From the NCBI GenBank assembly GCA_964016885.1, contig OZ024751.1, positions 39,308,001 to 39,372,000 on the forward strand: a stretch of 64,000 nt of DNA. The letters run 5' to 3'. The position numbers and the translations under genes were made by a program. Origin of the DNA: Eledone cirrhosa. Lineage: Eukaryota. The notes below the pieces were generated by a model. That model saw nothing but the letters and a program-made list of their open reading frames with translations, searched no databases and was not told where the DNA came from. This document shows, piece after piece, positions 4,821 to 49,213 of this stretch; position 1 is the stretch's first letter; each line of letters opens with the position of its first letter.

Positions 4821-4927
4821 ATATATATATCTTTCTGACTTGACCACTGCCACGTCACAGTTCTCAGCCATTTTGAATTCGTGTTTGGCGGAGTCCACTT
4901 CAGAAAATAATTTGTCCTAGCGAGTTT

Positions 4928-5006
4928 GTCCTCTGAAGAGCTCTAAACTCGAGATTTATCCTTAATATGATATCTCAAAATGAGAGCGAAACCCGTGGGT
5001 CGGGAT
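4928..5006 (+). ncRNA. Type I hammerhead ribozyme with long stem II
   Basis: GTCCT-CTGAAGA-GCTCT...AGAGC-GAAA-CCC GT GGG-TC-GGGAT. Canonical G-C base of stem II and a GUC triplet, in an island between (TA)n tracts. Confidence 0.8.
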
Positions 5007-6536
5007 TTAGTGATTTAATCCTGGTATGTCTATAAGCATTTCTAACTTTAATTTTATACCTAATTGTGTATGGTTGACCGTATATTTAATTAATTTCCAC
5101 GTGCTGTTGAAATTGGGTAAATATTCTATAGCGGTTGGCCGCGAAGACGCCGCTGTCGTGTATTTATTTACTGTTTCTTCATAGGTGCCTTTCAATCTTA
5201 GAGCCTGGTCTAATTGATGTTTTGTGTGGTTAATTATGCTAATTGGGAGAAGAAATAATGTATATATATTATCAAATAATTCTCTGGACATGCTTTACTT
5301 TATAGCATATATATATATATATATATACATATGGATATGTATGCGTCTGTGTGTGTTTGTTTGTTAGCGTGTGTGTTTGTTAGCGGGTGTGTATGTGTCT
5401 ATGTGTGTGCATGTGTGCGTGTGTGTTTGTCACAGTCTGTATGTGGATGTGGGGTGATATCGGGAAATATTGTTTACGGATGTAGCTACTAAATATATAT
5501 AGTTCCATGTTTCATAAGCCTTCTAATTAATTCCCTCATCCACTTGTTGTTGATCTTACTGTTGTTATTGTTGTTGTTGCTGTTATTGTTGTTGCTGTTA
5601 CTGTTGTTATTGTTGTTGTTGCTGTTATTGTTGTTGCTGTTACTGTTGATATTGTTGTTGTTGCTGTTGTTGCTGTTGTTGTTGCTGTTATTGTTGTTGC
5701 TATTACTATTGTTATTGTTGTTGTTGCTGTTGTTGTTGTTGTTGTTATTGTATTTCCTGTTGTTACAGTTATGCCGGCTGGTGTTTCCTTTCTTTCTTTT
5801 TTATTTAAATTTATTTTTATTTATTTATCTTTATCTCTCTAAATATTTATATATATATATATATGTATATATATATGTTTATATATACATATGCATATAT
5901 ATATATATATATATATATATATATATACACTATATGCATGTATGTATGTATATAGTTTTATACATGTATATATAATATACACGCACTCATATATATAATA
6001 CACACATGTATACATCTATACATATATATATATGTATATATATATATATATATATATATATATATATTTATATATATATATATATATATATATAAACGGA
6101 AAAAATGAAACGAAATTTCATTTCTCATACATACTTTATATATATACATATGTATATATATATATATATATATATATATATATATATATATATATATGTG
6201 TGTGTGTGTGTGTGTGTGTGTGTGTGTGTGTGTGTGTGTGTGTGTGTTCTTTTCGTCCAATACACACAATTTCTGTGTTCCTATATACTAAGATCAGCTG
6301 ACGAAATTATCTTCAAGATTATGACAATGATGGTGATGATAATAATGATGATGATGATGATGATGATGATGATGATGATGATGATATTGATGATGATGAT
6401 GGTAATAATGATGATGACGAGAATATCATTGCTAATGATGAAGTTCATTATGTTGATGATGATAATGATAATTATGTGGAATAAATTTAATATTAGGATG
6501 CTCATTAAGATGATGGTGATGATTATGGGATATTGA

Positions 6537-6728
6537 TAATTGTTTCTACTTTTGGCCCAAGGCCAACAATTACCCAGTGTATTACTGGTACTTTATTGTA
6601 TCGACCCCGTAATGATGAAAGGTAAAGTTAACCTTAGCGCGATTTGAACTCAGAACGTAAAGGGCCGTAACTCTATGCGTCAAAGCATGGTGTCCGTCCC
6701 TCTACCGATACTGCCAATCCACCGCCCC
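6537..6728 (-). mobile_element. tRNA-derived SINE (family A, Meta-domain-like core)
   Basis: A box TGGCAGTATCGG, B box GAGTTCAAATC, core similar to GCCTTTCATCCTTACGGGGTCGATAAAATAAAGTACCAG, and (ATT)n tail. More than 10 copies in the window. Confidence 0.85.
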
Positions 6729-8993
6729 TATTGATGAAGATAAGGATGATGATGATGATGAAGATGATGTTGATGGTGATTATGATGAATTTTAGGATGG
6801 TGATGGTGATGATGAAGATGATTATGATGGTTATGATGATGGTGATGATGATGATGACGACGACGATGATGATGATGACGATGATGATAATGATGATGAT
6901 GATGATGATGATGATGATGATGATGATTTGCCGCAGTCATGTGCGGTGGAATGTGCTCTTGGTAACACAGTGTATATATTTTGTACGTGAGAGACGAGGA
7001 AAGTCATGTAATGAGAGAGACAGAGAGAGAGAATGTAAATGAGAAAGCACGATATATATGTATGTATATATATACATAAAGATACATATATATATATATA
7101 TATATATATATATATATATATATATATATATATATATATATATATATATATATATATATATAATATATATATATATATAGAGAGAGAGAGAGAGAGAGAA
7201 AGACATATATTTATATATATACGTATATATTCATATATGTGTGCTTATATATATATATATATATATATATATATATATATATATATATATGAATATGTAT
7301 ACATACACACACACACACACACACACATATATATATATATATATACACACATATGCACATATATAGACCCATGTACATATATATATATATATATATATAT
7401 ATATATAAACATATATATTAATACACAGTTCCATATATGGAGAGAGAGTGTGTGTGTCTGTGTGTATGTGTCCGTGTGTCTTTGAGTCTATGTGTATGTG
7501 TGTGTGTGTGTGTGTGTGTGTGTGTGTGTGTGTGTGTGTGTGTGTGTGTGACAGAGAGGAGAGAGAGAAACAGAGAATTAGGTGGGAAATATAAAGATAA
7601 TATGTTAGATTATAAAGAAAAGCATAGGATTAATTTTACACCAAAAAACCTGCTTTGGCCGCATTGCTTTTAATTTTAATGAAGATTACAAATAGAATTC
7701 TAGATTATGGGTATATTTTAAGACGCCAGGTGCTGAGTTACTGTTTTTTACCATTTATTTCCTTCTTCTAGAAAGTTCGTTATGAACTGAATAGGTTAGT
7801 TCCCTTTGCATAGTTGATCCTATAACGTGATAGCAAATAAGATTTTTAAGTTTGTATGTATGCATCTATGTATGTATGTATGTATGTATGTACGTGTCTC
7901 TGTATGTATGTACGTATGTATGTATGTATGTAAGTTGGTAAGAAGGTATGTGTGTATATATGTATGTATGAATGTATATGTATGTTTATATGTATGTATG
8001 AATGTATATATGTATGTATGTATGTATATGTATGTTTGTATGTATATATATATGTATGTATATATGTATATGTATGTATGTATGTATATGTATGTTTATA
8101 TGTATGTATATATGTATGTATATGTATGCTTATATGTATGTATGTATATGTATGTTTATATCTATGTATGTGTGTATATGCATGTATGTATAATGTATGT
8201 AATTTGGTAAGGAGGTATGTATGTGGGTAGATATCTAACTAGGTATATAGTTTTGTATGTGTATATGGTATATGTGTGTGCGTGTAGTAAGTGGTGTGTG
8301 GTCTTGTGTGGTGTGGTGTGGTGTGGTGTGGTGTGGTGTGGTGTGGTGTGGTGTGGTGTGGTGTGGTGTGGTGTGGTGTGGTGTGGTGTGGTGTGGTGTG
8401 GTGTGGTGTGGTGGTAGTGAAGGAGGAACAAATTGTTTTATAATTTTAGGTACTTTGGTTATATAACAGAACAAAGAAATCAATGCAATACACACACACA
8501 CACATAATACATATATGCAGACATGCATACATACTTACATAGATACATACATACATACATACATACATACATACATACATACATACATACATACATACAT
8601 ACAAACATACATACATACATACATGCATACATACATACATATATACATGCATGCAAACATACATACATACATGCATAAAGGCATGCATACTTACATACAC
8701 TCATGCATACATAGACACACGCTTACATACATACATAAATATTCTGCATCTAATAACGGTATATACATGCATACACACATACATGCATACACACAAAAAC
8801 ACATACAGACATACATACGTATTTACTTTGTTTATGTTATCTAAATTCGAATGAAAGAGTCTTTATGTTAGAAACGAACGAACTCTCTCTATATATAAGG
8901 GAACGAGCGAAGGTTTCAAGAACACCCGGTTTGTCCGGTCCCTTGTCGATTCAATTTGGATTGCCTCGGGAACGTAACCTTATTATGTAAGAA

Positions 8994-9068
8994 GCTGTCT
9001 GATGATATCACGGCACTGGGTACACGGAATCTTGTGGCCACTGTCGTCATTGAAATATGTATCACAGC
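8994..9068 (+). ncRNA. Type I hammerhead ribozyme
   Basis: GCTGT-CTGATGA-long stem II (ACGGCA/TGTCGT)-GAAA-TATGTA-TC-ACAGC. Homologous copy at 24446-24519. Confidence 0.75.
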
Positions 9069-48100: not shown

Positions 48101-48408
48101 TAAAGAAAAAGAGATGAAATCGAAAATGCAACTGGAGTCTTATTTTTTTTTTAAATGAGTTGAGATGGAGGGTCTGTGGTTTTGAGAAAAACCACAGACC
48201 CTCCATCTCAACTCACCTTTTGAAAAGCAGAAGAACTGCGAAACCGGTAAAGGAACCAAATAAATATATATATATTTTTTTTAAATAAGACTCCAGTTGC
48301 ATTTTCGATTTCATCTCTTTTTCTTTATACTTTCATTCGTGTAGGACACCTCGGTTATTTTTCATTTTGTCAAAAAAAAAAAAAAAAAAAAAACCTCACT
48401 TTCTAATA
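48101..48408 (+). mobile_element. Dispersed hairpin repeat (copy 2) with an inverted copy of its 3' part at the left end
   Basis: 48101-48145 is the reverse complement of about 48283-48327. The remainder matches 4580-4820. Flanked by (TA)n. Confidence 0.7.
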
Positions 48409-48528
48409 TATATATATATATATATTTATATAGTAGTAGTAGTAGTAGTAGTAGTAGTAGTAGTAGTAGTAGTAGTAGTAGTAGTAGTAGTAGTAGTAAG
48501 GGTGCATTTAGACGTCTACATGTGAAAG

Positions 48529-48621
48529 CACATATCTGTGGAGTTTTCGATTCCAGAGTCAGGAACGAACATAATCGATCGTTCCTCGAGCTGATCGGCA
48601 GTGAAACATATGTAATATGTG
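48529..48621 (+). ncRNA. Hammerhead-like motif, core variant CUGUGGA
   Basis: CACATAT-CTGTGGA-long stem II containing AGGAACGA/TCGTTCCT-GAAA-CATATG-TA-ATATGTG. Perfect 7-bp stem I and palindromic stem III. Confidence 0.55.
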
Positions 48622-48746
48622 ATTAAATATGTATATGATGCCACACTAATTCTTTGTTCCCTAATTATCACTATTATTAAATAGCGTGTATATATATATA
48701 TATCAATGATATTAATAAATGGAAACTATATTTATAAAACCATATT

Positions 48747-48808
48747 TATTTTATTATGTACATTTTAAGGGTACCAAAAACTTTGATACGCCCTCATCAG
48801 ATAAAATA
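48747..48808 (-). ncRNA. Hammerhead ribozyme copy with GAAA>AAAA core mutation (likely inactive)
   Basis: Minus strand TATTTTAT-CTGATGA-GGG C GTATCA...TGGTAC CCT T-AAAA-TGTACA-TA-ATAAAATA. Same family as 22866-22930. Confidence 0.65.
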
Positions 48809-49213
48809 CAAAATTTGTTTTATAAATACTGACATATCCCAGAAACCAGACCTTATCGGTTCAGGCTCTTTGCTTATATATATATATATATATATATATA
48901 TATATATATATATATATATATATATATATATATATATATATATATATATATATATATATATATATATATATATATATACATAACATATATATATACATAT
49001 ATATACATATATATATATATATATATATATATATATATATATATATATATATATATATATATATATATATACATATATATATATATATATGAATATAGAC
49101 ATAGAATATTCGAAAATATTCTGTATGTTTATAATAAACATTTTGAAGACCTAATCGCTATAGAATAGAATACGTCACGTATTACAATTAGATTCTCGAT
49201 AAAAGCAAGGGAA

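Follow-up and report, generated by a model that had tools for sequence, protein, structure and literature searches.

The Hydra clade of Penelope-like elements (PLEs) is defined by a CxCX5C linker together with CxxC and CxH motifs, and its members carry canonical hammerhead motifs and insert into (TA)n microsatellites (Craig et al. 2021, PMC8557442). The supplement of that report lists an octopus element, Hydra-1_Obim, with a hammerhead and a (TA)n insertion, and an inverted copy with a one-sided tail is described there for PLEs. Hammerheads are also described as dispersed single motifs from truncated PLEs, in which a short palindromic helix III suggests that they form dimers (Cervera and de la Pena 2014, PMC4209133), and in metazoan non-long-terminal-repeat (non-LTR) retrozymes, which form circles of 170-400 nt (Cervera and de la Pena 2020, PMC7229834). 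In a Poseidon element, two internal sites on either side of the tail serve as starts of reverse transcription in vitro, targets are AT-rich, and hammerhead cleavage is not required for insertion (Frangieh et al. 2024, PMC11167929). Here we analyse a 64,000-nt stretch of the Eledone cirrhosa genome (contig OZ024751.1, positions 39,308,001 to 39,372,000; hereafter the window), in which ten short islands from eight families (A to H) carry type I hammerhead motifs beside microsatellites. Elements of these kinds have been described before, and hammerhead-bearing octopus Hydra elements in (TA)n are already in print. We consider it quite probable that the islands are 5'-truncated insertions into (TA)n, in which families B (with its relative B2), C and D supply the ends of coding Hydra-type PLEs and families A, E and G supply pieces of non-coding units that were likely copied by the same Hydra enzyme.

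Hammerhead islands and their genome-wide load

A type I hammerhead descriptor scan recovered all ten motifs of the original prediction at the start coordinates given there, with the motif at 17304 extending to 17302 when its full stem is included. Seven of them (4928+, 8994+, 17304-, 22866-, 24446-, 25429+ and 27137+) hold the exact core, CUGANGA followed by GAAA, stem III and UH, and have a stem I of 4 bp or more. None of 60 dinucleotide shuffles, made from the non-tandem segments after masking of the array at 49.0-55.3 kb, contained a strict motif of this kind, and this is the control by which the prediction had proposed to be judged. The descriptor had been loosened after the candidates were inspected, such that the first stem II pair may mismatch (U.U), and its first version gave only three strict hits. 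When one substitution was permitted in the first core half, ten motifs were found compared with a mean of 0.08 in 25 shuffles, and when it was permitted in GAAA, eight were found compared with a mean of 0.12 (again 25 shuffles). Of the three motifs outside the exact core, the one at 18776 has CCGAUGA, which is the norm of family D (11 of 14 siblings), and the other two are decayed: 48529 reads CUGUGGA where 12 of 14 siblings keep CUGANGA, and 48747 has AAAA in place of the GAAA present in the four close siblings listed. Stem III is palindromic in nine of the ten, as had been noticed for most of them, the exception being 27137 with a 4-bp stem and an 8-nt loop. The islands carry type I hammerhead motifs far above chance, and their sequence makes these motifs putative ribozymes. 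Since a palindromic stem III suggests dimer-dependent cleavage, single stubs may, by analogy, be only weakly active.

No hammerhead model reached the gathering score in an Rfam search of the window, and none stood among the best 150 of 535 matches ranked by E-value, which held microRNA-model noise from microsatellites instead. A relaxed match at 42925 was dropped, being AT-only and of a kind no more frequent than in shuffles. Other hammerhead-type repeats, and family C as well, have left decayed remnants at 18305-18532, 22439-22510 and 33927-34005, so the true number of hammerhead islands in the window exceeds ten. Pieces of another hammerhead family, absent from the original list and having CAGAAGA as its core, lie at 16735-16851, 19779-19845 and 27031-27086, and in locus L185 this family follows a Hydra-type frame at about 1 kb. 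Tandem repeats make up 49% of the window and microsatellites 28%, and a 91-aa frame at 13169-13444 resembles the C-terminal end of what we take to be a non-LTR retrotransposon endonuclease region.

Each of the eight families is multicopy, which answers the concern that the islands might be unique sequences. First-look searches, whose candidate numbers are not copy numbers, returned 2,885 candidates for A, 1,593 for B, 4,572 for D, 1,526 for F, 2,442 for G and 2,159 for H. For family C, a 23-nt motif has 22,619 exact copies genome-wide, and its reversed control has none. The overall load was estimated from 80 evenly spaced 10-kb stretches picked blind (800 kb of the 3.0-Gb genome), in which 60 strict motifs were found, including 19 in one array, compared with 0-2 in six shuffles. 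By stratum, 15 lay in 520 kb from the four largest chromosomes, 10 in 130 kb from four mid-sized ones and 35 in 150 kb from small ones. With the array counted once, the stratified estimate is about 186,000 strict motifs per genome (bootstrap 122,000-257,000), or about one per 16 kb, a figure drawn from a sample outside which five small chromosomes and the unplaced scaffolds fall and which duplicated haplotypes may inflate; with the array counted in full it becomes 295,000 (137,000-553,000). The family C motif occurs six times in the same sample, which extrapolates to about 22,500 copies, compared with the exact count of 22,619. The very high ribozyme count that had been anticipated is borne out, and of the predicted density of one hammerhead per roughly 5 kb, the window value holds (one per 5.8 kb) but the genome-wide value does not. 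Across all fetched loci, 339 hammerhead matches were found, with 25 multi-member clusters, in 21 of which the representative has a palindromic stem III.

Among the published counts that we compared, all obtained with other descriptors, the highest is that of the 28-Gb axolotl genome, with 126,247 hammerheads; Acropora has more than 6,000 and Mytilus about 5,000 (PMC7229834), and Xenopus about 9,000 and the coelacanth 4,000 (PMC4209133). Our literature searches, whose coverage extended to few subscription papers, returned no hammerhead count for a cephalopod. Within the sample, hammerheads are more densely packed on small chromosomes, with 17 in 150 kb when the array counts once, than on the four large ones, which have 15 in 520 kb. 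On the large chromosomes 3.7% of the sequence is (TA)n, compared with 6.2% elsewhere.

Insertion structure, coding parents and non-coding units

Every island in the window has a microsatellite at one or both ends, and the proposal that (TA)n serves as the target is upheld by copies elsewhere in the genome. In a set of 119 ends of incidentally met copies, which comprises also window copies and second arms in targeted loci, 86 ends (72%) have at least four TA units within 8 nt, 11 are followed by another microsatellite and 22 by neither, compared with 413 of 20,828 control positions in the genome sample and 315 of 8,341 in the window (2-4%) that adjoin (TA)n. Family H ends at (ATT)n or (ACT)n besides (TA)n, and newer elements are inserted within the TA runs of older ones. 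Two fixed 3' ends, 70-160 nt apart, lie downstream of the hammerhead in each of families A, B, C, D and F. Measured from GAAA, these ends lie at about 68 and 147 nt in A (26 and 7 of 42 alignments), at 60 and 150 nt in B (47 and 38 of 86), at 72 and 233 nt in D (9 and 16 of 27) and at 31 and 110 nt in F (17 and 21 of 39); the two ends of C account for seven and three of ten alignments, a similar pair is seen by eye in H, and G has one clear end (13 of 18).

The typical insertion reads (TA)n, inverted arm, junction, forward arm, (TA)n, with one arm stopping at the near end and the other carrying the tail to the far end, and the position of the inversion junction differs from copy to copy. All three features of PLE insertion structure, namely 5' truncation, an inverted copy and a one-sided tail, are present. 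At least 19 of 29 family B loci found with a tail-only query are fold-backs of this form. A reading of family B as a miniature inverted-repeat transposable element was rejected, because fixed terminal inverted repeats are absent, the junction varies between copies and the inverted copy comes with a one-sided tail. In the window, the fold-back form is seen in family C at 17272-17974 (minus strand; hammerhead 17302-17372), which has (TA)n at both ends and an inverted arm at 17781-17974 with a partial hammerhead and the tail, and in family B at 22826-23161 (minus strand; hammerhead 22866-22930), again with (TA)n at both ends, where the tail and its hairpin box, described below, sit on the inverted arm. 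Family E at 25106-25678 (plus strand; hammerhead 25429-25467) is a fold-back copy of a 468-bp non-coding unit. The shorter stubs include an 82-bp family F insertion at 27107-27188 (plus strand), which lies between two (TA)n runs and consists of an inverted tail piece and the hammerhead at 27137-27187. Family H at 48497-48662 (plus strand; decayed hammerhead 48529-48621) is flanked by (TAG)22 and a degenerate ATT-like run, and family B2 at 48704-48874 (minus strand; decayed hammerhead 48747-48808) has (TA)n at both ends. The B and B2 islands are 82% identical, and the earlier figure of about eight families holds if the two are merged.

A pile-up of family B truncations at the hammerhead cleavage site was sought in 29 arms, using a query that starts 6 nt after the site, and none was found: 24 arms run through the site, two loci (one duplicated event) stop within 4 nt of it and three stop downstream. 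The passage of most arms without a pile-up suggests that the template was uncut or re-ligated at this position. An apparent excess near -13 in the junction analysis was an artefact of the query's own junction and was set aside.

Three of the families lead upstream, on the same strand, to Hydra-type endonuclease sequence. Family D lies 650-1,030 nt behind the endonuclease at five independent loci, with no long TA run between; family B lies about 1.6 kb downstream of it in L302 and L301, and family C about 1 kb downstream of an endonuclease fragment in L104. The parent proteins of B (L302) and D (L224/L232) show the C-terminal endonuclease pattern of Hydra, with the CxCX5C linker, CxxC and CxH, a single Cys before Y(I/V)G and no CCHH, and the family C fragment, read by eye from the DNA, covers only CxxC and CxH. 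From this linkage, B/B2, C and D would be 5'-truncated 3' ends of coding Hydra-type PLEs, and the original assignment of the motifs to Penelope-type elements gains a named clade. The family D island in the window (18581-19093, plus strand; hammerhead 18776-18888, with the CCGAUGA core) appears to be such a 3' end, reaching the far end and then (TA)n; among the open frames of the window, read by eye, no PLE frame was linked to the islands.

A search with the Hydra-type endonuclease domain returned 62,098 first-look candidates. One young Hydra family (L309, G000:C1:91,472,001-91,482,000) has 784-aa frames, 3,542-bp tandems and many equal-scoring copies, and its protein, which has no Pfam match, carries DKT, RWR (not RWK), CxCX5C, CxxC and CxH. 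It was compared by eye with published Hydra sequences, and these motifs are the marks by which it would be filed in this clade. A fragment of the end of this young family lies within the window at 4486-4547.

The remaining units that we could delimit are non-coding. Family A is a 1,297-bp unit in tandem, with three hammerheads 1,297 bp apart and a longest open frame of 108 aa; family E is a 468-bp unit that forms a 19-copy array in L131, a locus of the blind sample, with a longest Met frame of 74 aa; and the family G unit is put at about 688 bp from read-through and from two matches 688 bp apart. In the window, family A is present as an older copy at 8916-9119 (plus strand; hammerhead 8994-9068), which is 87-89% identical to other A copies and has (TA)n at its end, and as a 5'-truncated copy at 24395-25080 (minus strand; hammerhead 24446-24519), which ends in (CT)11(AT)15. 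Family G is a 5'-truncated copy at 4831-5305 (plus strand; hammerhead 4928-5006), whose 3' end joins (AT)10. A fourth hammerhead unit, of 310 bp, forms an array of near-identical units at 49091-55211, outside the span of the original prediction; two opposite arms meet near 51765, the left arm stopping at the near end and the right arm bearing a short tail, in a fold-back design like that of the stubs. The A, E, G and 310-bp units are non-coding, carry one type I hammerhead each and occur in tandem (by the reasoning above for G), as retrozymes do, whereas B, C and D have endonuclease sequence upstream. The population of elements is as diverse as had been supposed, and A, E, G and the 310-bp unit do look non-autonomous, but B, C and D are better described as truncated ends of coding elements.

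One may ask whether every island is a non-autonomous retrozyme whose RNA circulates as a small circle excised by its own hammerhead. The four non-coding units read through as tandem or circularly permuted units, copies cross the cleavage site as a re-ligated circle would permit, and small circles are what metazoan retrozymes form (PMC7229834). We nevertheless find this explanation unlikely, as B, C and D run upstream into coding sequence, an uncut tandem transcript accounts equally well for the read-through, and the units of A (1,297 bp) and G (about 688 bp) are too long for the 170-400 nt class; a 2026 preprint gives consensus lengths of up to 972 bp (10.64898/2026.07.22.740005).

The tail hairpin and a proposed route of insertion

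The families had been thought unrelated, with no obvious similarity outside the hammerhead core, and this part of the original prediction does not stand: a tail hairpin is common to coding and non-coding families and to the young Hydra family. The hairpin box, present in most families, consists of RCTY, a spacer of 6-27 nt and RAGY, usually followed by RC, and at the near end it begins mostly 6-16 nt after the end itself. Among read-through copies it follows the near end in 43 of 49 for B, in all four for C and in 17 of 18 for the young Hydra family; it follows the far end in six of seven for A, in all six for the young Hydra family and, by eye, in one D locus. The same pattern occurs at 104 of 16,962 random-sequence positions and in none of 49 read-throughs after anchors in Neptune-type elements. 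Its pairs covary between families (ACTC/GAGT, GCTC/GAGC and ACTT/AAGT). The box is visible in two published Hydra consensus excerpts (PMC8557442 supplement); our searches of the literature, most subscription papers lying beyond their coverage, did not find the tail hairpin in print. The hairpin is likely a signal for the start of reverse transcription.

These features suggest a route by which the stubs could arise. The Hydra endonuclease would nick (TA)n, and reverse transcription would begin internally on the RNA, downstream of the hammerhead, at either of two fixed sites, both of which precede a hairpin of the form RCTY...RAGY by a few bases. The two target ends would prime at the two sites, and both copies would stop early and join at a variable point, leaving a fold-back stub with the tail on one side; the template RNA would not be cut at that hammerhead, being either uncut or re-ligated. 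Because the hammerhead lies just upstream of the near start site, most stubs, even short ones, would retain it, and this retention would explain the very high motif count. By analogy with Poseidon, these data are compatible with a similar route for Hydra. Judging from their shared hairpin, ends and targets, A, E and G were likely mobilised by the Hydra enzyme, and the same enzyme may have copied F and H. We see even chances for a further proposal, in which the covarying hairpin after each of the two start sites is a licence read by the Hydra reverse transcriptase, and non-coding ribozyme RNAs of 0.3-1.3 kb that kept it ride on the young, high-copy Hydra family, giving a load of about 2 x 10^5 hammerheads in 3 Gb, a higher density than in any of the published counts compared.

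Several observations weigh against this account of the islands as products of Hydra enzymes. For A, E and G, the evidence of Hydra mobilisation consists of the shared hairpin, ends and targets. No coding parent was found for family H, whose shared sequence extends to about 250 nt upstream without a PLE match among nine loci listed of ten, nor for family F, of which a sister subfamily was followed about 560 nt upstream; the search for autonomous partners that had been recommended led to endonuclease sequence for B, C and D, whose parents yielded no full-length frame, and to no coding partner for these two. The coding link of family C is a single locus with an endonuclease fragment. The young family L309 has no canonical hammerhead at its 3' end in a descriptor search, and its 3,542-bp unit exceeds the '<3 kb' typical of Hydra. 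The near-end rates of the hairpin box are lower in E (29 of 57), F (17 of 59), B2 (2 of 7) and H (2 of 17), in part through loose anchors that inflate the denominators. The strict pattern missed the near end of A and family G, where 27-nt loops were read by eye, and the near end of D and the 310-bp unit match the pattern only partly. The helix is only 4-6 bp long and appears in the lowest-energy fold of seven of 13 tails, being reduced in one and absent in five. Elements of the Neptune type also end in (TA)n here, and a minimal hammerhead sits about 380-416 nt behind the frame of Neptune family N2 (L184, L185, L188 and L195).

This last point bears on the idea that the non-coding families are moved by Neptune or Poseidon, not by Hydra, and that the hairpin is merely inherited sequence. 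Neptune-type elements are abundant (10,597 first-look candidates for GIY-YIG) and their 3' ends adjoin (TA)n, while the N2 hammerhead resembles those of E and the 310-bp array unit in its U.U closing pair and palindromic stem III. The hairpin box, however, is missing from the Neptune read-throughs, occurs at the near and far ends alike in the young Hydra family and in A, and covaries between families, and we regard a Neptune or Poseidon origin of this mobility as decidedly improbable. When Neptune- and Poseidon-type elements from the Pfam GIY-YIG search were tried as parents of the ten islands, their 3' regions did not continue into them, and a family F copy behind a Neptune frame in L196 proved to be a separate insertion in that element's TA run. 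In the window, Neptune-type family N1, which has a CxxC linker and, at its C-terminal end, a GIY-YIG domain, is represented by fold-back 3' ends at 4556-4830 and 48099-48432 that end in (TA)n. These ends carry GAAA with a palindromic stem III, preceded by a hairpin, but no CUGANGA in the usual place; families N4 and N7 share this half-motif, and N3 shows it in decayed form.

That the (TA)n association is secondary, arising from the density of microsatellites in the window or from growth of AT-rich element ends (several of which begin with bases able to seed expansion) after insertion, is very hard to credit, given that 72% of ends adjoin (TA)n against 2-4% of control positions, that both ends of an insertion do so although they are unlike in sequence, and that newer elements lie in the TA runs of older ones.

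Relation to described elements and significance

Read as truncated insertions made by Hydra enzymes, the islands and their coding relatives resemble published Hydra elements (PMC8557442) in CxCX5C, CxxC, CxH, the lack of CCHH and, for L309, DKT, and also in a canonical type I hammerhead close to the 3' end, insertion into (TA)n, truncation at the 5' side, an inverted copy and a one-sided tail. In the published hammerheads of Hydra-1_aJap and Hydra-1_cRog, U likewise faces U at the foot of stem II, and stem III is palindrome-like. The Eledone elements differ in the number of families within one genome, in their very high copy number, in tails of 70-160 nt, where 30-40 bp has been described for PLEs, and in 3' untranslated regions of up to 1.6 kb, and their youngest family has RWR for RWK and is without a canonical hammerhead. 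The hairpin box goes without mention in the accessible text of the Hydra report, though it can be seen in two of its consensus excerpts.

The A, E, G and 310-bp units are like metazoan non-LTR retrozymes (PMC7229834; Li et al. 2026, 10.64898/2026.07.22.740005) in being non-coding with one type I hammerhead each, in occurring as tandem arrays and dispersed copies, and in the dependence on PLEs proposed for such elements. They are unlike them in the 688- and 1,297-bp units, in the predominance of truncated fold-back stubs in (TA)n among their copies, and in a cis-feature common to one specific coding clade; here they are known from DNA alone. Minimal and small PLE hammerheads (PMC4209133) are similar as dispersed single motifs from truncated PLEs, with several consensus families in a genome, pairs on opposite strands at distances of 100-700 bp and a short palindromic helix III. 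The richest genomes of that survey hold about 4,000-9,000 motifs compared with the estimated 186,000 here, under different descriptors, and stem II is often long or U.U-closed in our families in place of the G10.1-C11.1 pair of those hammerheads. The Poseidon element PAc of Anolis (PMC11167929) appears to be a parallel in its two internal start sites around the tail, its AT-rich targets and its independence from hammerhead cleavage. PAc belongs to another clade, however, and initiates inside an AC-rich stem-loop in the start of its open reading frame, whereas the ends described here mostly lie 6-16 nt upstream of a short hairpin.

Two features take this system beyond the published kinds, namely the scale of the hammerhead load and the shared tail hairpin. 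The stubs would form a large part of the genome that is mostly unannotated, because Rfam and Pfam miss them. If the hairpin is indeed read as a licence by the Hydra reverse transcriptase, animal retrozymes would gain a named autonomous partner and a named cis-signal. Together with the hairpin, the young Hydra family, with its long open frames and equal-scoring copies, allows a direct test of how the start sites that underlie the Penelope 'tail' are fixed and of which coding element moves animal retrozymes.

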